A stretch of DNA of 22,230 bases from a virus. Its lineage: Duplodnaviria > Heunggongvirae > Uroviricota > Caudoviricetes. The notes under the pieces were generated by a model that made no database searches, was not told the DNA's origin, and saw only the letters and a program-made list of their open reading frames with translations. Position numbers and translations under genes: made by a program. Shown one piece after another: positions 14,569-22,230 of the stretch. Each line of letters opens with the position of its first letter. The first letter of the stretch is position 1. Location: IMG/VR virus record IMGVR_UViG_2713896776_000007, positions 1-22,230 of that record. One strand, written 5' to 3'.

Positions 14569-14704
14569 GAAGTTATTACGTGGAGCCAGTCGCCAGCCGC
14601 TGCCACCGGATGCACCTGATCCACCGCGCGATAAATAAGCCGCAATCCGTGAGATAAATGGACACGGTGCGGCTTTTCAGATACTGCAAAGGAATTACAA
14701 ATTA

Positions 14705-17182
14705 TCAGTCGTAAGCAACCCGGCGCTTACGGGCAAGAATAGCTTCCAGCGCTCTTTCAATCTCAGGAATGGACAGCTTAAGCGCATTCGCTACATCCGG
14801 TGCTGGTGACTTGTTCTTGCCATCAATATAGATATGGTTAATGACGTTAATCCCTGCACCTGCCGGTGAATGTGAATCCCGGCCTCTGGATAAGGTAAGG
14901 TCGCCGCGCATATAGCGCTCTAATACGGGTGGTACTTTCGGTACATCCGGCACCATCATATCAGCCAGCCGCGAGGAGGCTTTTAGCGCCAGCGATGCAG
15001 ACTGACCGATACCAATCGCCGCCCCTTCTGCGATGTTTGAACCGAAGCCCATAAAGACCCGGCTTGGCGAGTGAATCCCCAGCTTTTCCTTGAACCACCC
15101 GCCGACGCTATCGCCCATCTCGGTAACGGTATTCTTGAGCGACTCCCACTTATTTTTGATACCGTTCACCAGTCCGTCAATCAGGTGACCGCCAAACTCG
15201 GTAAACTGGCCGGGAAGGTCGATGTTAAACCACTTCATGACCCCCGCAAACGCCTTGTAGAACAGCCCCAGCGGCGACCAGTTCAGGATTAGCTTACTGA
15301 CGCCGAGAACGCCGCCGTTAAAGGCCGTTTTGACTTCCTCCCATCGCTGTGAGAACCATCGACTTATTGCCCCCCAGTTGCGGTATATCAGGTATGCGCC
15401 CCCGGCGATGACGGTTATCGCAATGCCTAAGGGATTCATCATCAGCGCCCGGCCAAACCAGAGAAATGCTTTTGCAACGACCATGACGCCCCTGAACAGC
15501 CCACCTGCCAGCGCTTTACCCAGCGTCCCGGCTCCCTTCGCTACGGTACTGAATCCAGTAGCCAGCCAGCGCAACCTGCCACCAACACCAAGGGCGGCTT
15601 TCAGCTTCACCCAATGAGTGTGTACCAGAACAGCGTTTTTCCACATCCCAACAAAAGGTGAAAAAAGCAGATTAAGGCCGAGCTTCAGACCGACAGTGGC
15701 AATTTTCAGCCCCAGCAGTGCGCCCACGGTTTTTGCCACACCCTGAACAAGCGTCGGATGTTGCTCTATCCAGAGCTTCGTTGTCTGAATCATCGGGATT
15801 AATTGCCGGGTTGCTGACACAAATGTAGGGGACAACTGATCGCCGAGAGAGATAGATAAATCACGGGTGTTTATCATCAGGGCTTTGGTTGCTTCCAGCG
15901 GCGATTTGAGCCTTTCAGCATAGGATGCCGCCAGCAGGTCATTATCAGCCGCTTTAAGTGCACCAGAGCGGATTGCCCTGTATTTATCCATGTTAGCAAG
16001 CATAGGGCGAACGAACGCCATTACCTGCATATCGGTGAACATCTCACCCAGCCCAAAGTTTTTAGCCAGACTTTGTAAGGCCTCGTCCCGCGCTTTGTTG
16101 TCCTGAATTTGCATTGCGGATTTAAAACCAGCCAGAGCTTTCGGACTCGTTGCATTAAGGTATCTTTGGGTTACATCCAGCATACCTTCAATGGGGGAAA
16201 CTCCGGCTGCTTTATAATTCGCAAGAGACCCCATCAGGTCGATACCTAAATCGGCAAATCGCTTCTGCGTATCAGGCGCAAAAATCTTGGTGAGGAAGTT
16301 CCTGAAATTGTTTGCAGTCTCATCCGGTGAACCTGAACCAATCATAGCGACCTGCAAACTGGCCCCAATCTCCGCCACTGCATCCTTACCGTCTGCAATA
16401 CCCTGCATCATCGGCGCAAGCGACTGAATCCATTTCACCTGGTCAGGGATTTCAAAAGACCCCTGGTCACCTGCGTAGGCCATGATGTTCTGTACCGCGC
16501 CAAATTCTTTTGCGCTGCCTTTCAGCGAGTTTTGCCACACCGCCGCAACCTTTGCCCATTCCGTTCCTGCGGTACGGGTTGCCGTGGCTGCACGGGCGAT
16601 ATTCGGCATGTAGTTGCCAATATCTGAAAGCCCGTCAATGTTATCGCTGATAAGTGAACCAACGGCGTCCTGCATATCGCTCTGATACTGGTTGTATTTG
16701 AGCGACCACCCTTTGATTTGCTCTCCCAGAGTCTTACGGGTTTTATCGTCATATTTCGCTGTGATTGACATATCAATCATTTTATCTTCAAACGATGCCG
16801 ACTGTTCTATAGCCGGGGACACAAGACTGTAAGCAGCCCTGACTTGTGCATACGCCTCTACTCCCTGACCGTAGAGCGCCATGCGGTTAGATTTCAGGGC
16901 GTCAGAAGTGGCAGACGCTGCCGACAGGCGGGACTGCTGGCGGTTAAGCTGTTCCAGCGTTCTGCCGACCCGTTGCAGGTCATTGTTCAGGCGCGAGGCT
17001 ACGCCCGAACCAACCTGACCGTAACGCTGCATGGCGCGTGACAGGCTGCTTTGCTGCTCCGTCAGTCGGCGTGAGGTGTCGCCGAGAGAATCCAGAGTAC
17101 GCCGGGTACTGCTCATCGCGGAACGAAAACTGCTCCCGACAATGCCGCCAATCATCACGCCAACAGAAAAATTATTGCTCAT
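14705..17182 (-). CDS. second tape-measure-like protein (825 aa), out of normal tail-gene context
   Basis: It has a TP901-type core region, long predicted helices and hydrophobic glycine-rich central segments. Near the C-terminus is the IHSPSRVF motif, which is common in tape measure proteins. GGAG lies 6 nt upstream of the ATG. Confidence 0.8.
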   Translation of the reverse strand: MSNNFSVGVMIGGIVGSSFRSAMSSTRRTLDSLGDTSRRLTEQQSSLSRAMQRYGQVGSGVASRLNNDLQRVGRTLEQLNRQQSRLSAASATSDALKSNRMALYGQGVEAYAQVRAAYSLVSPAIEQSASFEDKMIDMSITAKYDDKTRKTLGEQIKGWSLKYNQYQSDMQDAVGSLISDNIDGLSDIGNYMPNIARAATATRTAGTEWAKVAAVWQNSLKGSAKEFGAVQNIMAYAGDQGSFEIPDQVKWIQSLAPMMQGIADGKDAVAEIGASLQVAMIGSGSPDETANNFRNFLTKIFAPDTQKRFADLGIDLMGSLANYKAAGVSPIEGMLDVTQRYLNATSPKALAGFKSAMQIQDNKARDEALQSLAKNFGLGEMFTDMQVMAFVRPMLANMDKYRAIRSGALKAADNDLLAASYAERLKSPLEATKALMINTRDLSISLGDQLSPTFVSATRQLIPMIQTTKLWIEQHPTLVQGVAKTVGALLGLKIATVGLKLGLNLLFSPFVGMWKNAVLVHTHWVKLKAALGVGGRLRWLATGFSTVAKGAGTLGKALAGGLFRGVMVVAKAFLWFGRALMMNPLGIAITVIAGGAYLIYRNWGAISRWFSQRWEEVKTAFNGGVLGVSKLILNWSPLGLFYKAFAGVMKWFNIDLPGQFTEFGGHLIDGLVNGIKNKWESLKNTVTEMGDSVGGWFKEKLGIHSPSRVFMGFGSNIAEGAAIGIGQSASLALKASSRLADMMVPDVPKVPPVLERYMRGDLTLSRGRDSHSPAGAGINVINHIYIDGKNKSPAPDVANALKLSIPEIERALEAILARKRRVAYD

Positions 17183-17214
17183 GGTTCACTCCGGTAATGA
17201 GTGGTTCGGTGGCG

Positions 17215-17808
17215 TCATTCGGTCAGGGACAGGCCGCTGATTCCGGTAATCCCGGCAATTTCCTCGCTGACAGCCATCAGTTCACTTTCAAGCCCGGTAC
17301 GTTCGCTGACCAGCGCCGCAACGGTCTTACGGCGTTCTGCCAGTGACGGAAGTTTGTCATTGCCCCACACCACGCTTTTATCCTTCTTAAGCGCTTCGGT
17401 CAGGCGGGTGGCGACCACATCCGGGAAGAAAAAGCAGAGCTTGCGCATAACCGCCATCCCGGTATCAGCCGGGGAGATGTTTCCACCCAACCCCACCAGA
17501 CGGAACAGGCCGGAAATATCGCCGCTCTCATTCTCCAGATTGCCCCAGCGTTCGGCGTTCCCTTCACTGCCGGAACTGTTGCAGAGGACACGCTTGAATG
17601 ACTGATATTCTTCCTGCCCGAATCGCTCAATATATTCAGGAATGAAAGAACAGTAATCATTAAGCGATAAAGGCATATCCTGTAATGTGGTTATTTCGCC
17701 GTTAATTTCACTAATGCGGCGAGAGAGTTTTTCTTTCTGCTCATTCAGGGAGGCAAGATTATTTTTAACGGCGTTCAGTGCTTCGATAAGGGAAATAACT
17801 GGTTTCAT
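17215..17808 (-). CDS. hypothetical protein with coiled-coil ends (197 aa)
   Basis: It is a clean ORF whose start is 1 nt from the upstream stop. It is heptad-like at the N-terminus (LNAVKNNLASLNEQKEKLSRRISEINGEITTLQ) and at the C-terminus. I recognise no family, but a scaffold-like role is conceivable. Confidence 0.45.
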   Translation of the reverse strand: MKPVISLIEALNAVKNNLASLNEQKEKLSRRISEINGEITTLQDMPLSLNDYCSFIPEYIERFGQEEYQSFKRVLCNSSGSEGNAERWGNLENESGDISGLFRLVGLGGNISPADTGMAVMRKLCFFFPDVVATRLTEALKKDKSVVWGNDKLPSLAERRKTVAALVSERTGLESELMAVSEEIAGITGISGLSLTE

Positions 17809-17809
17809 T

Positions 17810-18424
17810 TTAATAACTCCAGATAAAAGGCGTGGTGAGTGTGAGTGCTTCGGAATAGGAGACGTTACAGGCTTCGCTTACATCCTTTATTAAAAGGTGC
17901 TGCGCTGCTCTCTGGCTGTCAGCTATGCCGTCGAACTCTGAGAAATAAACGTGTGATTCATTGTGACCAAAACAGACCGGGTAAGCGCTTTCCATAAATT
18001 CCACCTGCTCCAGCCCTTTAACGGCTGGCGGCTGTGAGCCGAGAAAACCGATATGGCGTAGATACCAAGCTCCGGTGCCTGCCGGGTTGCTGGCCTCGCC
18101 GGGCTTATAGAATGACGCAGATACTTTCCTGTAACGCCCTGAGCGCACCAGCCCCAGCAGGGTATCATCCGGTTTTACCAGTGCGAAAAGCCTGCCGTTC
18201 TTGCTTATCAGTCCGGTGGTTTCGCCATAGGCCGGGCTGTTACTGGCCGGATGCCCCAGACACAGCGGCGCACCGTAACCCGCGCTGCGATAGCCGTTAT
18301 AGGCCGCTGCCATGTTGTCGATATCCTCGTCGGAAAAGCTGATTTCCTGTCCCGCCATCGCGGTATGCGTTCCCGCCCGGAATATCTCAATCGTTTTCCA
18401 GTTGCCCAAATTAAGATTTGTCAT
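17810..18424 (-). CDS. GPO / Mu-I-like capsid protease-scaffold N-terminal domain protein (204 aa)
   Basis: The pattern W..IEIFRAG.HT...G.EISFSDEDIDNMAAAY........APLCLGH......AYGE...L...GRLFA.V.P.D.L..LV..G.Y..VSASFY...YL.H.GFLG..PPAVKGL..V.F parallels the P2 gpO and Mu I N-terminal domains as I recall them. This is remote similarity only. Confidence 0.5.
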   Translation of the reverse strand: MTNLNLGNWKTIEIFRAGTHTAMAGQEISFSDEDIDNMAAAYNGYRSAGYGAPLCLGHPASNSPAYGETTGLISKNGRLFALVKPDDTLLGLVRSGRYRKVSASFYKPGEASNPAGTGAWYLRHIGFLGSQPPAVKGLEQVEFMESAYPVCFGHNESHVYFSEFDGIADSQRAAQHLLIKDVSEACNVSYSEALTLTTPFIWSY

Positions 18425-18466
18425 TTACCTGTTCTCGGTTGTGATGTGTAAACAGTGCTTTGCTGC

Positions 18467-18823
18467 TTAGTGTCTGGCAGCGCTATCTTTCAGGCTGTTT
18501 CTGTATTCACGGCGTTTTTGGGCGATAATGTTGTAAATCCATTGCAGGGAATAGCCGTATTTTTTCGCTATTTCAGCGATGGGAATACCTTCATTAAAGT
18601 CTGCAAAAACCAGATCATATTTCTCTTCATTCTGGTCTTTTGTTCCTTTTGGGAAGTAAAGGTTAAGCCCGCCGTATACATCTGACAGATACGCCATGAT
18701 GTCTACAGCGATAGATTCAGACTGACGTTTATCGACACCGTACATGACAAGGCGGCAGGAAATGTGCGTAGCCATATCACTAAGCACTTCGGCAGATTGA
18801 CGCATTTTTTGTTTGTTGGTCAT
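18467..18823 (-). CDS. Mor/C-family transcriptional activator
   Basis: The C-terminal HTH (EGIPIAEIAKKYGYSLQWIYNIIAQKRRE) and the length (118 aa from the ATG at 18821-18823) are typical of the Mu Mor/C family. Confidence 0.8.
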   Translation of the reverse strand: MTNKQKMRQSAEVLSDMATHISCRLVMYGVDKRQSESIAVDIMAYLSDVYGGLNLYFPKGTKDQNEEKYDLVFADFNEGIPIAEIAKKYGYSLQWIYNIIAQKRREYRNSLKDSAARH

Positions 18824-19022
18824 GACTATCACCCGTTGCAATATCAGTAATTCAGTCAGAAAAGGCTTTATAAAGCTTTACAGCGTGCGACTGGCGGTAA
18901 AGGCGAACCTTGACCGCAGCAAACCAGCCTGACGGCTTAGAAAGCGTTACAGCACCTTGTTAAAGTCAGTTAATAATATCGGGTGTGGGCGGGGATGTTT
19001 TTTAATGTACTTTAGATATGAA

Positions 19023-19046
19023 GAAGCCCCTCAGAGGAGGGGCTTC
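19023..19046 (-). terminator. hairpin terminator after the DUF3077-like gene
   Basis: It has a perfect 10-bp GC-rich stem (gaagcccctc / gaggggcttc) and a 4-nt loop, 17 nt after the stop. The downstream U-tract is weak (UUCAUAUCU). Confidence 0.5.
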
Positions 19047-19062
19047 GCGGGATTACGCCAGA

Positions 19063-19353
19063 TTATTGAGGCCGTCTGTCTTTCCTCAATCCATCAAGTA
19101 GCGCCATTGCATCAGTAACCAGTATGCCAGCAGCATCCGTAACCATAGAAACATCAGAGGATGCACATGATTTATCCGTACCTAATGTAGACGCAAAATC
19201 AAGTAGCTTACGAACTGCATCAAGTCGGTAGGTGGCAGAGTCGTAAATTAACTCCTGATTAGCATCAGTCTTTAAAAACATAATATCATCAGAGGCACCT
19301 TGTGAAAATGACGGCATCGCACGGAAAGTATTTTGAGTTTCAGCCTGTTTCAT
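19063..19353 (-). CDS. hypothetical protein (96 aa, possibly DUF3077-like)
   Basis: It has an ATGA overlap with the upstream gene. It is acidic and helical. The family guess is weak. Confidence 0.45.
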   Translation of the reverse strand: MKQAETQNTFRAMPSFSQGASDDIMFLKTDANQELIYDSATYRLDAVRKLLDFASTLGTDKSCASSDVSMVTDAAGILVTDAMALLDGLRKDRRPQ

Positions 19354-20093
19354 TGTGCAGCCCTCCGGCTAATAGCGAATTTATTATAAACTTCATAACT
19401 GGCAGCATTCAGTCCGGGGTTGTATTTATCAGCCAGAGCACAGGCAATCATATGTTCAATAAATTTTGTTATTGCGTTAAGTTCGGTTTCGTCTGAATAA
19501 CGCAATGCCACTTTGAGTAACTCGCGGCAATATTGCTTTTTATTCTCTTCGATTTGGCCTGATTGTTTTATTCCTGCCTTTTTATCTAACTCGTCCTCAA
19601 CAGGCAAAGATGAGATATCCTCTTTATTGGTTAGCGTTCTTTCGCAAATAATATCTTCACCAGATTGAATTACGCGCTGCAACTCTCTGGCGCTCATGCG
19701 AAGAATATCATCAAGCGTGTGGTCGTTATATGCCCCACCACTGGCAAGGAGATCCAGTGTCACTTCATCCAGCCGGGCAAGCAGATTTAACTTCGTTTTG
19801 CCGATATCTGTTTTGGCAATTGCGGCTCGTGGTGTGTCACCGCCGAACACATGAGCGATTCGCATCGCTTTACGTGCATCGGGCAAGTTTATGCGCCATC
19901 TGTGAAGAAAGTTCGTAAACTCACCATGTTGCAGTTCCTCTTTACAGGCAAATATTTTCTTTCCCAAAGAAACCAAGCCTTCGGCCTCCGATGTCGTTTT
20001 AGCGTGAGAACTGTGAATCACGCCACTGACCACCGCAGATAAAACACTTTCTTGGTTTGTTCCAAATGAATCGTTAGACTTATCATTAGCCAT
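19350..20093 (-). CDS. DUF3102-like protein
   Basis: The segment LGKKIFACKEELQHGEFTNFLHRWRINLPDARKAMRIAHVF resembles the DUF3102 core (HGEW/F..WL.....S.R.A...M.LA). I preferred the ATG at 20091-20093 because AGGA lies 8 nt upstream. The ORF track extends to 20111. Confidence 0.55.
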   Translation of the reverse strand: MANDKSNDSFGTNQESVLSAVVSGVIHSSHAKTTSEAEGLVSLGKKIFACKEELQHGEFTNFLHRWRINLPDARKAMRIAHVFGGDTPRAAIAKTDIGKTKLNLLARLDEVTLDLLASGGAYNDHTLDDILRMSARELQRVIQSGEDIICERTLTNKEDISSLPVEDELDKKAGIKQSGQIEENKKQYCRELLKVALRYSDETELNAITKFIEHMIACALADKYNPGLNAASYEVYNKFAISRRAAQ

Positions 20094-20167
20094 GACTGTT
20101 ATCCTACGCATAACGGTTTACTGGTTAGGCCATAGCAAGTGCTCGCAACATTTGTTATGGCCGTTTC

Positions 20168-20231
20168 TCTAGACCTTTCCCTGTGTTAAGGTATAGACCT
20201 AATAAGCAAACACTAAGCTATAGGTCTATAC
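20168..20231. promoter_or_regulatory. operator-like repeats T(C/A)TAGACCT x3 in a divergent control region
   Basis: The three copies are tctagacct (20168-20176), tatagacct (20192-20200) and an inverted aggtctata (20222-20230). The last two are part of a perfect 10-bp inverted repeat (gtatagacct-N21-aggtctatac). That repeat brackets a TAATAA -10-like hexamer (20201-20206) and abuts the ATG at 20232. Confidence 0.5.
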
Positions 20232-20423
20232 ATGTCAACTATCTTGCGAGATAAAAGCCCTAAAGGGGCAGGTAAAGCCCCGATGTTCAATGTCAGGATT
20301 TCACCAGAACTGAAAGAACAGTTTGAATCACAAGCAAAAAAAGAAGGTGTTAGCTTAGGGAATTGGCTCAAAGAGCTTGGGAGAGCAGAGCTTAAGCGCA
20401 ACGGAATTGACCCGAAGGCTTAA
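20232..20423 (+). CDS. ribbon-helix-helix (Arc/CopG/HicB-antitoxin-like) DNA-binding protein
   Basis: In the 63-aa product, FNVRISPELKEQFESQAKKEGVSLGNWLKELGRAEL fits the RHH beta-alpha-alpha pattern. Confidence 0.65.
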   Translation: MSTILRDKSPKGAGKAPMFNVRISPELKEQFESQAKKEGVSLGNWLKELGRAELKRNGIDPKA

Positions 20424-20459
20424 ATTTAGTTACTAAAAAACAATAGCTTAAGGTATTTT

Positions 20460-20545
20460 TGATAAATATTTATCACTTGTATTCGACATCATAGTGATAA
20501 ATATTTATCATTCACAGCGCATCGGCACATGATAAAATGTTATCA
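20460..20545. promoter_or_regulatory. three 16-bp palindromic operators at 35-bp spacing
   Basis: TGATAAATATTTATCA occurs at 20460-20475 and identically at 20495-20510. A degenerate copy, TGATAAAATGTTATCA, lies at 20530-20545. Confidence 0.6.
20511..20538 (+). promoter_or_regulatory. putative sigma70 promoter for the 114-aa gene
   Basis: The elements are TTCACA-16 nt-TAAAAT. The -10 lies inside the third operator. GAGG lies 7 nt before the ATG at 20561. Confidence 0.4.
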
Positions 20546-20560
20546 CTTTGAGGCTAGTTT

Positions 20561-20905
20561 ATGCGTATACATGTTACTCTTAATGGCAAAAAAACAACCA
20601 TATCGATAGATGACTTGCTCTTCGACTATCTTGGTGCATGGTTGGTTGAACAAAGACCCAAACTGCACTCAAAACCTAAAGAGCAGTATGACCAAGCTAA
20701 GTCTCAGATTCGTAAATATGTGCAAGATAACGCAGAAAAACTCCCATCTAAGAACCTTAGCCAGCACATACAAAATGCCATTTTAGAAATAATTATGCCG
20801 AAAGAATTAAATGAAATTCTAGAGAAAAGAGGGCCAAGATATGAGAAGAAAAAGTTTGATGTGACCACAATTTTCCCTGATTGGGAAAATTATCTGAGAA
20901 AGTAA
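20561..20905 (+). CDS. RHH_4-like (PF13467-type) ribbon-helix-helix domain protein
   Basis: IHVTLNGKKTTISIDDLLFDYLGAWL....NLSQHIQNAILEI parallels the RHH_4 pattern (v.l.G..TSisLE..FW..L...A...NLSSaiR..vL) as I recall it. Confidence 0.5.
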   Translation: MRIHVTLNGKKTTISIDDLLFDYLGAWLVEQRPKLHSKPKEQYDQAKSQIRKYVQDNAEKLPSKNLSQHIQNAILEIIMPKELNEILEKRGPRYEKKKFDVTTIFPDWENYLRK

Positions 20906-20924
20906 TTAAATCAATGGATTGTAT

Positions 20925-20944
20925 ACCGCTCAGCGCTGAGCGGT
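20925..20944 (+). terminator. palindromic hairpin after the 114-aa gene
   Basis: accgctcagcgctgagcggt is a perfect 20-bp palindrome 19 nt after the stop. The T-tract is poor (tctgtgg). Confidence 0.35.
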
Positions 20945-21157
20945 TCTGTGGCTCTAGATCTGCCAACGTTGGCAGATTTGCCAATACCGCATTTGATTGA
21001 TGGTATCGAATCGCAAATGTCCCAGCGCTGGGAATCATCCCCAAAGGCGCAGACATCTGCGCCTTTGAGAAGCACGGAACTAAAATCCGTTTCACTGTAT
21101 GACTGTATGGTATGAGGCTTTCAGATGCTTACTGAGGCTTAAATAAGCTAATGAAGT

Positions 21158-21186
21158 TTGCATCATCTGTTCCAAGTTAGTACACT
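21158..21186 (+). promoter_or_regulatory. putative sigma70 promoter of the antitoxin sRNA
   Basis: The elements are TTGCAT-17 nt-TACACT. The predicted start at about 21193-21194 coincides with the first base of the left inverted-repeat arm. Confidence 0.45.
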
Positions 21187-21193
21187 TATCCCT

Positions 21194-21226
21194 GTTAGTG
21201 GATGCGTGACGCGCTCTGGTTGAGGC
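21194..21226. repeat. left arm of a perfect 33-bp inverted repeat
   Basis: gttagtggatgcgtgacgcgctctggttgaggc is the exact reverse complement of 21444-21476. Confidence 0.95.
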
Positions 21227-21272
21227 TCATTACCTTGAACAGAGATTCATCACCTTAAGCACCCAAAGAAAA

Positions 21273-21302
21273 AAGCCTGACCTCACCAGTCGGGCTTTTT
21301 TT
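21273..21302 (+). terminator. rho-independent terminator
   Basis: The 9-bp stem is aagccugac / gucgggcuu with one G-U pair and a 7-nt loop. It is followed by a T7 run. An A6 run upstream could allow bidirectional use. Confidence 0.75.
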
Positions 21303-21324
21303 GTCCGTTATTTACTCCAGTCCT

Positions 21325-21352
21325 TTGAATACACTGCTGATGCCTTTATAAT
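21325..21352 (+). promoter_or_regulatory. strong sigma70-like promoter of the toxin mRNA
   Basis: The elements are TTGAAT-16 nt-TATAAT. The predicted start is at about G21359. Confidence 0.55.
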
Positions 21353-21443
21353 CACAGCGTTAGTGGGTGTCCCGTTCTGACACAACGCAGGCATGTGAAA
21401 CGTGTTCAAGCCCTGGCTGGATTACGGGTGGTGCCGCTCCAGT

Positions 21444-21476
21444 GCCTCAACCAGAGCGCGTCACGCATCCACTAAC
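21444..21476. repeat. right arm of the perfect 33-bp inverted repeat (predicted sRNA target in the toxin leader)
   Basis: gcctcaaccagagcgcgtcacgcatccactaac lies 73-105 nt upstream of the toxin ATG. Confidence 0.95.
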
Positions 21477-21548
21477 AATGCAACACCGTTAACCAGGCAG
21501 TGGAAGGGCTTTAATGGTGATGCCGCGCTCCTGTAGTGGAGCAAACGG

Positions 21549-21632
21549 ATGAAGGGATTTCTTCAAATCGCTGTCATCGCTCTTAAGGCAATTGTCGCCT
21601 TTATTGAGCTGATTCTGGCCTGCTTACCGTAA
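21549..21632 (+). CDS. 27-aa hydrophobic TisB/DinQ-like type I toxin candidate, not in the ORF track
   Basis: My manual translation is MKGFLQIAVIALKAIVAFIELILACLP. From memory, TisB is MNLVDIAILILKLIVAALQLLDAVLKYLK and DinQ is MIDKAIIVLGALIALLELIRFLLQLLN. GGAG lies 7 nt upstream of the ATG, and a strong hairpin follows the stop. Confidence 0.55.
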   Translation: MKGFLQIAVIALKAIVAFIELILACLP

Positions 21633-21651
21633 GCAACCGGGAAACGTAAGT

Positions 21652-21680
21652 AAGGCCACCGGCTCACCCCCGGTGGCCTT
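21652..21680 (+). terminator. hairpin terminator of the toxin mRNA
   Basis: It has a perfect 11-bp stem (aaggccaccgg / ccggtggcctt) and a 7-nt loop, 19 nt after the stop. The U-tract is weak. Confidence 0.55.
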
Positions 21681-21885
21681 TAACATTTTAAGTCTGCCTC
21701 GCCGCTCTACCGGCCATTCATTTTTGAAGCTGGCTGAGTGTTAAGGCTAAATTTAAGGTGGCACTGACGGCTTAAATTCCTGCGATATCCTGGCATGTCG
21801 TTATGATTAAAGCGCATTAGAAACAAATTTCATCGTTCTGATTAAACATGTTTACCTGACTATTCAAAGTAAGGTAAATCTCAAT

Positions 21886-22230
21886 ATGGCACGACCTCAG
21901 ACGGTTAATCAGTTACCCGACTCTATCAAGAAGAAACTGAATAAAAAGCTGACGGAAAGTTCATTCAGCGGCTACGTTCAGCTTACTGAGTGGTTAAACT
22001 CGTTGGGATACCCGGTTTCAAAATCATCAGTGCATCGCTATGCTGAACGTCGCCGCCTGTCACTTATAGCAGGGAGCGATACTCCCGGCGCAACAGCTAA
22101 CATTGTGGATACGAAACTTCGCTGTCTGGAGCTTGCCTCGCTCTCTTTAAAAACGGACGAGAAGTTGTCAGCAGATGAAGTAAAAAAATATGCTGAAAAT
22201 TTGATGGGGTGGCTTTACGACCAGAAATAA
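21886..22230 (+). CDS. Mu gp27-like protein (DUF3486, terminase small subunit candidate)
   Basis: QLPDSIKKKLNKKLTESSFSGYVQLTEWLNSLGYPVSKSSVHRYAERRR matches the DUF3486 N-terminal pattern (LP.E.r..Ld..L.d..fsGY..L.eWLne.G..iSKSAvHRYg). The stop is at the last bases of the window. At 114 aa it is short for the family. Confidence 0.75.
   Translation: MARPQTVNQLPDSIKKKLNKKLTESSFSGYVQLTEWLNSLGYPVSKSSVHRYAERRRLSLIAGSDTPGATANIVDTKLRCLELASLSLKTDEKLSADEVKKYAENLMGWLYDQK

Follow-up and report, generated by a model that had tools for sequence, protein, structure and literature searches.

Here we describe a type I toxin-antitoxin system of the DinQ/AgrB family in the virus record IMGVR_UViG_2713896776_000007, analysed over its positions 1 to 22,230 (hereafter the window, 22,230 nucleotides (nt) in all). 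The locus is an unannotated, divergent member of the family, carried on a Mu-like mobile element in Escherichia coli. Its predicted toxin mRNA starts at G21359, and the 5' end of this mRNA folds back onto the leader segment that is targeted by the antitoxin small RNA (sRNA). This fold-back is the S1 lock already published for dinQ, and the segment to which a preliminary description of the sequence had drawn attention is the a/a' base of S1, met here in an unannotated homologue. What is new is the divergent family member; the S1 lock itself is published, and current understanding is not overturned. All four elements of the dinQ switch can be recognized in the sequence, and a DinQ-type three-state switch of the Shine-Dalgarno (SD) hairpin, governed by a cis-acting lock, is in our judgement the best explanation of the locus and probably the correct one.

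The 5' end of the toxin mRNA folds onto the sRNA target

The preliminary description had proposed that the first 11 nt of the mRNA, GUUAGUGGGUG (21359-21369), pair with CAUCCACUAAC (21466-21476). Coordinates and letters both proved exact, and a repeat search returned the same two segments (GTTAGTGGGTG and CATCCACTAAC) as an 11-nt match of 10 Watson-Crick pairs and one G-U pair. The same 5' end had been called a degenerate third copy of the start of the left repeat arm, and indeed 21194-21204 (GTTAGTGGATG) is identical to 21359-21369 at 10 of 11 positions (91%). The pairing is real, but 11 base pairs (bp) under-describe it. U12-G107 forms a twelfth pair, giving a lower S1 helix between GUUAGUGGGUGU (21359-21370, segment a plus an extension) and GCAUCCACUAAC (21465-21476; mRNA positions 1-12:107-118), and beyond a 4-nt loop there follows a second helix made of C13-G102 (21371/21460), a C.C mismatch and then 15-21:94-100 (21373-21379/21452-21458). 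In this upper stem the 5' strand is element 1 (CCCGUUCUG, 21371-21379) and its partner is element 2 (CAGAGCGCG, 21452-21460). With the second helix counted, the likeness between the 5' ends of mRNA and sRNA extends over ~21 nt (with a 4-nt deletion) and not only over 11.

Both the minimum free energy (MFE) structure and the centroid of the 21359-21688 RNA (-124.4 kcal/mol, z = -3.26) contain this helix. The duplex between the 5' end and the target amounts to -29.1 kcal/mol, and the lower helix, with its 12 contiguous bp and -19.3 kcal/mol, is the strongest among 37 distinct family types. By chance it is rarely matched: an 11-bp partner with at most one G-U pair was found for the first 11 nt in 3 of 20,000 dinucleotide-preserving shuffles of the remaining 5' untranslated region (UTR; 1.5e-4). 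The central claim of the preliminary description, that the mRNA 5' end can fold onto the leader segment targeted by the sRNA, is thus borne out by the MFE and centroid folds, by the shuffles and by co-variation across the family.

The sRNA target site occupies 21444-21477 and holds both element 2 and the 3' strand of the lower S1 helix; S1 covers 21 of its 34 nucleotides, the 3' two-thirds. Target and sRNA form a perfect 34-nt inverted repeat (21193-21226 and 21444-21477, 34/34 complementary). Like all features of the locus given below, the AgrB-like antitoxin sRNA is encoded on the plus strand, at 21194-21302 (predicted length ~109 nt), with 33-34 nt at its 5' end antisense to the toxin leader and an intrinsic terminator at 21269-21301 plus a U run. 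The terminator hairpin was found as an inverted repeat, and the sRNA folds with -37.8 kcal/mol (z = -3.3); its terminator loop CCUCACCAG is common to Photorhabdus and Xenorhabdus sRNAs. Rfam gave sub-threshold matches to AgrB (RF02891, 19.2 bits against a gathering threshold of 40) and to OrzO-P (RF02083, 24.5 against 60), the latter over the 3' half of the sRNA (21228-21301), and these weak matches gave the lead to the enterobacterial type I toxin-antitoxin systems with trans-encoded sRNAs. Matches to Thr_leader and STnc40 were set aside as terminator-like hairpins.

The predicted duplex of sRNA and target reaches -73 kcal/mol, compared with -62 for the cognate dinQ/AgrB duplex, whereas the non-cognate combinations give -8 (AgrB on the present target) and -27 (the present sRNA on the dinQ target). 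Given this large gap the two systems should not cross-talk, and we rejected cross-regulation by chromosomal AgrB on these energies. Within the subgroup of close relatives, position 24 of the sRNA/target pair is found in both complementary states (T:A and A:T) as well as in one-mismatch intermediates, and position 30 shows a compensatory G:C in locus L011.

Homology and co-variation across the DinQ/AgrB family

For comparison we assembled a family set by scanning one genome per species (GTDB) with three motifs common to dinQ and the present locus, and by adding plasmid matches to a dinQ query; it comprises 50 non-redundant leaders, 46 of which were aligned (alignment A2). An nhmmer profile of family 5' UTRs that left out the present subgroup matches the window over 21363-21551 with E = 8e-29 (94 bits), and a profile of DinQ, DqlB and Serratia-type (divergent-type) leaders only does so over 21357-21551, to the start codon, with E = 4.9e-20. 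Direct comparison with K-12 dinQ-agrAB extends the homology across the whole transcript, from the -10 element to the terminator. The blocks in common comprise, in the 5' part, the -10, GUUAG at +1, UUCAAG.CCUGG...ACGGGUGGUGCCG (stem-loop SL2) and a target ending in CUAACAAUG; in the middle, CAGGCAGUGGA (stem-loop SL4), the anti-SD/SD hairpin and GGAG.AAACGG.UG; and at the 3' end the block GGAAACGUAA.UAAGG...CCUUUAACAUUU, which is conserved with both dinQ and dqlB.

S1 itself co-varies. In A2 its columns hold 79% standard pairs, as opposed to 41-51% when the partner strand is slid, and the covariation score of 0.32 (0.10-0.16 for slid partners) was reached by none of 500 shuffles. At a/a', 98-99% of cells retain the pairing, with the fourth pair changing from A-U to G-C (AU:40 GC:4) and the fifth from G-C to A-U, and the helix of elements 1 and 2 is 83.8% paired across the family, both partners having changed in five of its nine pairs. 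Independently of these counts, RNAalifold finds compensatory changes in a/a', SL2 and SL4, and the present sequence fits both stem-loops: SL2 (21416-21443, around ACGGGUGGUGCCG), exemplified by columns 115/141 (UA:29 CG:11) and 124/133 (AU:31 GC:15), and SL4 (approximately 21484-21519, around CAGGCAGUG; seen also in the MFE structure), with many compensatory changes in stem columns 199-203/224-228.

Since the variable 5' region aligns poorly, duplex energies were also compared free of any alignment. The first 32 nt of each leader bind their own target with a mean of -30.4 kcal/mol, compared with -19.7 on targets less than 70% identical, and none of 2000 re-pairings was as good; with the comparison confined to the first 13 nt of the leader and the 3' portion of the target, cognate pairs give -9.4 and non-cognate pairs -7.3 kcal/mol (0 of 5000). 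The alternative pairing of element 2 with element 3, the anti-SD (CGCGCUCC, 21524-21531), behaves in the same way, with -15.5 kcal/mol for cognate and -11.1 for non-cognate family duplexes (0 of 2000 permutations). At the present locus this 2:3 duplex, which involves 21454-21460 of element 2, is a perfect 7 bp (GAGCGCG/CGCGCUC) of -14.9 kcal/mol, ranking first of 38 against a non-cognate mean of -10.6, and it is mutually exclusive with the 5-bp 3:4 pairing GCUCC/GGAGC. Element 4 is the SD, GGAG(C), at 21538-21542 (GGAG at 21538-21541), 7 nt before the AUG; its hairpin with 21527-21531 is part of the MFE structure.

The elements switch together between classes, as read from A2: the DinQ class has UUCACUC as element 1, GAGUGAG as element 2 and CUCACUC as element 3, where the present locus has CGCGUUC, GAGCGCG and CGCGCUC. 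Among relatives that share the tandem gene order of the present locus (see below), the first five nt of the sRNA, the first five nt of the mRNA and a' change jointly, from GUUAG/GUUAG/CUAAC to GUUGG/GUUGG/CCAAC (L089) and GUUAA/GUUAA/UUAAC (L073), and divergent-type relatives, in which the sRNA gene lies on the other strand, keep the same pairing.

The toxin peptide and its absence from annotation

The toxin open reading frame (ORF; 21549-21632) encodes 27 amino acids (aa), MKGFLQIAVIALKAIVAFIELILACLP, predicted to form a small, hydrophobic, single-helix peptide homologous to those of other family members. It is identical at 14 of 27 positions (52%), without gaps, to the Photorhabdus/Xenorhabdus-class peptide MKAFIDTAIIVLKALIALLELIRAFLK (pairwise E = 3e-8), a class that NCBIfam names DinQ, and tblastn places it at 50-56% identity to the peptides of L035, L039 and L044. 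In relatives at 90-96% DNA identity, substitutions within the ORF are synonymous or conservative (V/I, and I/L in L045), a pattern that reads as purifying selection. The fold-back, this selection pattern and the family homology support the earlier suggestion that the locus encodes a genuine regulated toxin mRNA rather than a chance ORF.

The peptide has no NCBIfam match at E <= 10, including toxin_DinQ (NF041472) and DinQ_rel/DqlB (NF041473), nor any match to the NCBIfam TisB model (PRK14754) or to Pfam. All six other family peptides that were tested, and with them every other class examined, pass a cut-off, five with toxin_DinQ and DqlB with DinQ_rel. Its position outside the NCBIfam DinQ models explains why the annotation pipeline PGAP never calls it: neither the toxin ORF nor the sRNA is annotated in any of the nine E. 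coli RefSeq genomes that carry the locus. The RefSeq annotation of the carriers, among them the model strain MS 115-1 and AW1.7, a heat-resistant isolate from food, thereby lacks a type I toxin that is intact and under selection, together with its sRNA.

Transcription signals

The toxin promoter is predicted to be of the constitutive sigma-70 type (TTGAAT-16-TATAAT, 21325-21352, 10 of 12 consensus matches) and ends 6 nt before G21359. The placing of the toxin mRNA at 21359-21688 (~330 nt) follows the leader-profile match and the alignments with dinQ, and G21359 is a plausible +1: a -10-like hexamer stands 4-8 nt upstream in 50 of 50 non-redundant family members (mostly TATAAT at 6 nt), and GTT[AG][AG] follows it in 49 of 50, the exception being L058 with GTCAA. 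The +1 of dinQ has been mapped by primer extension (PMC3567139), and the published dinQ numbering is consistent with a +1 at the G of GUUAG, which reproduces every nucleotide identity quoted in PMC5066626. The mRNA would end at an 11-bp terminator hairpin followed by UUUAACAUUU (21652-21688), recognized as an inverted repeat and present in the MFE structure.

Upstream of the sRNA we read a putative promoter at 21158-21186 (-35 TTGCAT, 21158-21163; 17-nt spacer; -10 TACACT, 21181-21186), too weak to be detected by a consensus promoter scan; tandem-class relatives have TTGATA-17-TAGACT at the equivalent place before GTTAG. No LexA box (CTG-N10-CAG) was found within -60 to +15 of the toxin +1, and LexA control of this promoter was accordingly rejected. 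Within the family the LexA box is confined to the dinQ of Escherichia/Shigella.

A proposed three-state switch and its alternatives

The precedent for the regulation of this locus is dinQ. In the dinQ primary transcript a long stem, S1 (G1-C28 with G94-C120), holds the 13-bp duplex of sequences 1 and 2 together with the greater part of the 34-nt AgrB site (Kristiansen et al., RNA 2016, PMC5066626). As long as sequence 2 is held in this way, the SD (sequence 4) is shut in a hairpin with sequence 3; once 44 nt have been removed, sequence 2 is released to pair with sequence 3, and the SD opens; and AgrB then "effectively replaces" element 1 and re-imposes the closed SD hairpin (PMC5066626). The elements 1:2, 2:3 and 3:4 were shown by selective 2'-hydroxyl acylation analysed by primer extension (SHAPE), compensatory mutants and in vitro translation, and RNase III assays were also made; S1 was called a "double lock", against translation and against AgrB/RNase III (PMC5066626). 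The same paper notes a phylogenetically conserved a/a' duplex at the base of S1 and defines the dinQ-like (dql) genes, of which 14 were published. The dinQ ends at +1, +44 and +125 were mapped by primer extension (PMC3567139), and toxicity and inner-membrane location have been reported for DinQ (PMC3567139) and DqlB (PMC12365149). The dinQ lock acts, then, through whether element 2 is free to pull the anti-SD off the SD, and no standby site has been shown for the DinQ family.

Transferred to the present locus, this gives three states. In the inert primary transcript the first ~21 nt would fold on the sRNA target as S1, tying up element 2 and leaving the anti-SD free to close a hairpin over the GGAG of the SD; S1 would also hide most of the sRNA site, making the primary transcript a stable, silent store. 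This first state is borne out by the sequence, by folding and by family co-variation. Removal of ~45 nt from the 5' end would then free element 2 to pair with element 3 and expose the SD, an activation suggested by homology to dinQ +44 and by the conserved 2:3 complementarity rather than by folding. Finally, the sRNA would bind the freed target, take the place of the lost 5' end and allow the SD hairpin to re-form, with the 34-bp duplex of sRNA and target a likely substrate for RNase III; here the pairing is evident, and we infer its consequences. In effect the mRNA carries at its 5' end a weaker copy of the antitoxin that acts in cis.

A three-state logic (inert, processed and active, sRNA-silenced) had been anticipated in the preliminary description on the model of tisAB, in which 5' structure sequesters a standby site. 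The logic stands, supported by homology, co-evolution and the dinQ experiments, but the tisAB/standby model is an analogy and not a relative: as the locus is homologous to dinQ/agrB, the right precedent is an SD-hairpin switch. The folding comparison that had been proposed, with and without the first 40 nt, likewise came out in part. The lock disappears, the mean probability that the target is unpaired rising from 0.31 at full length to 0.52 after removal of 45 nt (ViennaRNA), but the SD stays closed in every construct.

Several points weigh against the switch as laid out here. Transcription start, processing, toxicity and sRNA expression of the locus are all predictions. In ViennaRNA folds the probability that the SD is unpaired is ~0 for all starts from +1 to +60, with an opening cost of ~8.4 kcal/mol throughout; enforcing the 2:3 pairing costs 4.3 kcal/mol, or 9.5 with the SD open; and the local SD hairpin (CCG.CGCUCC...GGAGC...CGG) has -12.6 kcal/mol, compared with -7.3 in dinQ. 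The family set was fished by a motif pattern taken from dinQ and the present locus, which introduces ascertainment, and the shuffle and permutation statistics ignore phylogeny. When 2:3 pairs are counted by column on A2, a slide of -2 scores as well as a slide of 0, reflecting a 2-nt register shift between classes; the shift spoiled this count, which was therefore replaced by the alignment-free test of cognate and non-cognate duplexes. Within the subgroup the 12-bp lower helix varies only by a single A to G exchange, after which a U-G pair remains, and the covariation evidence for the exact lower helix comes from more distant relatives. Lastly, the AW1.7 allele has C at 21372, where all relatives have G, which yields the C.C mismatch in the 1:2 helix; element 1 reads CGCGUUCUG in all other alleles. 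The same allele has A at 21453, giving its sRNA 34/34 pairing where most relatives, several E. coli and plasmid ones among them, have one mismatch, and a weaker cis lock could here be offset by stronger trans control.

The weight of the folding result depends on what such folding can detect, and dinQ served as a positive control. There the probability of being unpaired shifts weakly, from 0.08 to 0.22 (0.02 with the AgrB site blocked), so that a proven switch barely shows; the folding test has little power and is uninformative rather than refuting, though it lends the switch no support either.

Of the other explanations, a TisB-type standby mechanism survives best; the folding leaves it real room, but we regard it as unlikely. 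It holds that the SD is closed in all forms of the mRNA and that, after processing, the leader at 21444-21477 serves as a ribosome standby site that is silenced when either the sRNA or the 5' end occupies it. This would account directly for an SD that stays closed in every truncation while the target opens, and for an SD hairpin markedly more stable than that of dinQ, and the dinQ authors could not exclude such a mechanism (PMC5066626). However, homology links the locus to dinQ and not to tisB, as does the lack of a TisB match in the peptide; a pure standby model does not need the conserved, co-evolving 2:3 complementarity; and opening of the SD in dinQ +44 has been seen directly by SHAPE (PMC5066626).

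We consider it quite improbable that the fold-back is a stability lock only, shielding the primary transcript from the sRNA, RNase III and 5'-end-dependent decay while translation is set by the SD hairpin alone. A fully paired 5' end is a poor substrate for RppH and RNase E, and S1 does bury 21 of the 34 target nucleotides; in dinQ, moreover, AgrB binds the +1 form poorly compared with +44 and likewise triggers little of its RNase III cleavage (PMC5066626). Yet a dinQ mutation that weakens element 1 raises translation of the +1 form (PMC5066626), and the co-evolving 2:3 pairing ties occupancy of the target to the SD. Scarcely credible, finally, is a resemblance without function, in which both 5' ends go back to the duplication of a promoter/+1 segment or AW1.7 holds a relic in decay: the sRNA and mRNA 5' ends are direct repeats, AW1.7 has its 1:2 mismatch and the locus is rare (9/5426 E. 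coli genomes), but independent lineages show co-variation of the sRNA and mRNA 5' ends with a', the pairing persists in divergent-type relatives despite an sRNA gene on the other strand, chance would give it at 1.5e-4, and ORF, promoters and terminators are intact and appear to be under purifying selection.

Relation to known systems

The DinQ-type switch that we favour places the locus beside E. coli K-12 dinQ/agrB (with agrA, in the arsR-gor intergenic region), with which it shares a homologous mRNA of ~330 nt (dinQ, 331) with +1 at GUUAG, the S1 fold-back on the sRNA site, SL2, SL4, the anti-SD/SD hairpin, a terminator ending in CCUUUAACAUUU, a 27-aa hydrophobic peptide with an ...A..A..ELI... 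core, and an sRNA that starts GUUAG and whose 33-34 nt of 5' antisense end on CUAAC. Unlike dinQ, where the sRNA genes are divergent, the present sRNA gene stands in tandem with the toxin gene, 133-166 nt upstream of +1 on the strand they share, and it is single, with no agrA paralogue. The locus has no LexA box, its targeting sequences are orthogonal, its lower S1 is 12 contiguous bp where dinQ has 5 bp plus loops, and of the two it has the more stable SD hairpin. The peptide starts at AUG, is 3 aa longer at its N-terminus, lacks the Arg after ELI and is missed by the NCBIfam model toxin_DinQ. And whereas dinQ occupies a fixed chromosomal site, the present locus lies on a mobile element.

Gene order divides the family. 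T1TAdb assumes one organisation for it, with the sRNA gene upstream and divergently transcribed (PMC8594479), to which the present locus does not conform. Orientation is divergent in every DinQ, DqlB and Serratia-type locus (L016-L022, L026, L034, L036 and others), with the antisense segment 63-144 nt upstream (310-343 for agrB in K-12), and same-strand in the present locus and all Photorhabdus, Xenorhabdus and Symbiopectobacterium loci, 134-184 nt upstream (tandem-side loci L035, L037, L039, L041, L044, L055, L067, L072, L073 and L089). With the tandem loci of Photorhabdus, Xenorhabdus and Ca. Symbiopectobacterium the present locus has in common the same-strand sRNA at -134 to -184, element 1 GCGUUCUG, element 2 CAGAGCGCG, element 3 CG(C/U)GCUCC, the sRNA terminator loop CCUCACCAG and a peptide 50-56% identical; in contrast, their peptides pass the NCBIfam model toxin_DinQ, their lower S1 is interrupted, and they are chromosomal loci of other genera, often in two copies ~0.85 kb apart. 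Photorhabdus luminescens and P. caribbeanensis, for example, each carry two tandem-type copies ~0.85-0.9 kb apart (L067, L072). We found no description of the tandem class, nor anything relevant on AW1.7, in the literature searched (the 2016 dinQ paper without its figures); the tandem loci may correspond to the "dqlA" of Kristiansen et al. 2016.

The dqlB/agrB loci of conjugative plasmids such as pOXA-48 are alike in RNA family, trans-acting sRNA logic, mobile carrier and want of a LexA box, and for dqlB toxicity, antitoxin base pairing (by compensatory mutants) and post-segregational killing have been shown (PMC12365149). They differ in a 31-aa peptide (MINLLIIVLRAV...) and a divergent sRNA, and their DNA similarity to the present locus falls below the blastn "distant" threshold. 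The likeness to tisB/istR-1 consists in a trans-encoded upstream sRNA, an inert primary transcript structured at its 5' end, activation by 5' processing (+42 in tisB) and an sRNA that acts far upstream of the SD; tisB is, however, non-homologous, its SD stays closed, it needs a standby site, it is LexA-regulated and its sRNA is divergent. In zorO/orzO, shoB/ohsC and hok/sok, too, the primary transcript is kept inert and refractory to the sRNA until processing, by the full-length leader in zorO and shoB and by a 5'-3' fold-back, the fbi element, in hok, but peptides and pairing partners are other ones and hok uses 3' processing, and we claim no membership for the present locus. An unexplained similarity between zor and plasmid dinQ leaders was noted in a 2024 paper (PMC11264685).

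Taken across these comparisons, the S1 "double lock" and the four-element switch are kept over much of the Enterobacterales by a three-way co-variation of sRNA, mRNA 5' end and target, and the lock survives both a change in the strand of the sRNA gene and the absence of SOS control. The unusually strong lock at the present locus offers a natural variant for weighing SD opening against standby loading in the activation of this family.

The mobile element, its distribution and neighbouring features

The E. coli AW1.7 chromosome contains the segment at 100% identity, and the locus is found in 9 of 5,426 complete E. coli genomes. A plasmid search with the present locus gave a sole match, a Citrobacter IncFIC plasmid that carries the same element, and the phage GenBank collection gave no match even in distant mode. 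One carrier of the cassette is a metagenome-assembled genome labelled Advenella kashmirensis (L031, Betaproteobacteria), which may reflect contamination or transfer.

The locus occupies a ~1-kb gap between a gene for a 114-aa hypothetical protein and a Mu Gp27-family gene. It is carried by a mobile element of ~7.7 kb that interrupts the major capsid gene of a lambdoid prophage and spans approximately 14617-22230 of the window plus ~140 nt beyond it (L001 13468-21222). At the right boundary, ...TATTTATCTCA(T/C)GTCTAATCA is followed by unrelated DNA in AW1.7, VREC0864 and CX21/MS 115-1, and the Citrobacter plasmid copy has yet another neighbourhood. Both ends of the element start with TGAT and carry GTGAGATAAAT-like repeats, and AAGACA is duplicated at the two flanks. 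Its genes encode a tape-measure-like protein, Mor, a DUF3102 protein, a HicB-like protein and a short Gp27, and no transposase was found within it; the element looks like a non-autonomous Mu-like transposable element or satellite.

Putting locus and carrier together, it is conceivable, if rather doubtful, that the present locus and those of Photorhabdus and Xenorhabdus make up an undescribed tandem branch of DinQ whose antitoxin gene was inverted onto the toxin strand. In such a layout, read-through of the sRNA terminator would put antitoxin and target in one molecule. The cis lock of the present locus (the 12-bp lower S1 and the -12.6 kcal/mol SD hairpin) is also much tighter than that of dinQ. 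On this reading the cassette would, in E. coli, provide addiction or exclusion to a Mu-like element that lacks a transposase and moves among prophages, chromosomes and plasmids, with activation perhaps of the standby type rather than by SD opening.

Comparison of the element copies further shows that the toxin cassette can be at least 95% identical while the adjacent Gp27 protein drops to 36-40% identity in some elements (L005, L015 and L031 compared with L002, L003, L008 and L086); a conserved cassette beside a diverged Gp27 suggests cassette exchange between related elements. In a Gp27-based search of IMG/VR, a 72%-identical Gp27 (L009) belonged to an ordinary Mu-like gene order, gemA-mor-gp27, in which the toxin cassette is lacking, and a further match, L010, was too distant.

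Two neighbouring features may be mentioned. Just upstream of the locus, at ~20232-20423 (L001 19083-19274), a gene for a HicB-family antitoxin is annotated, but none for a HicA toxin beside it. The other feature, a perfect palindrome of 12 bp (CAAAGGCGCAGA-ca-TCTGCGCCTTTG, 21042-21067), lies downstream of the 114-aa ORF; it gives sub-threshold matches on both strands to Rfam STnc40, confined to the 3' hairpin of that model, and is probably a bidirectional terminator.

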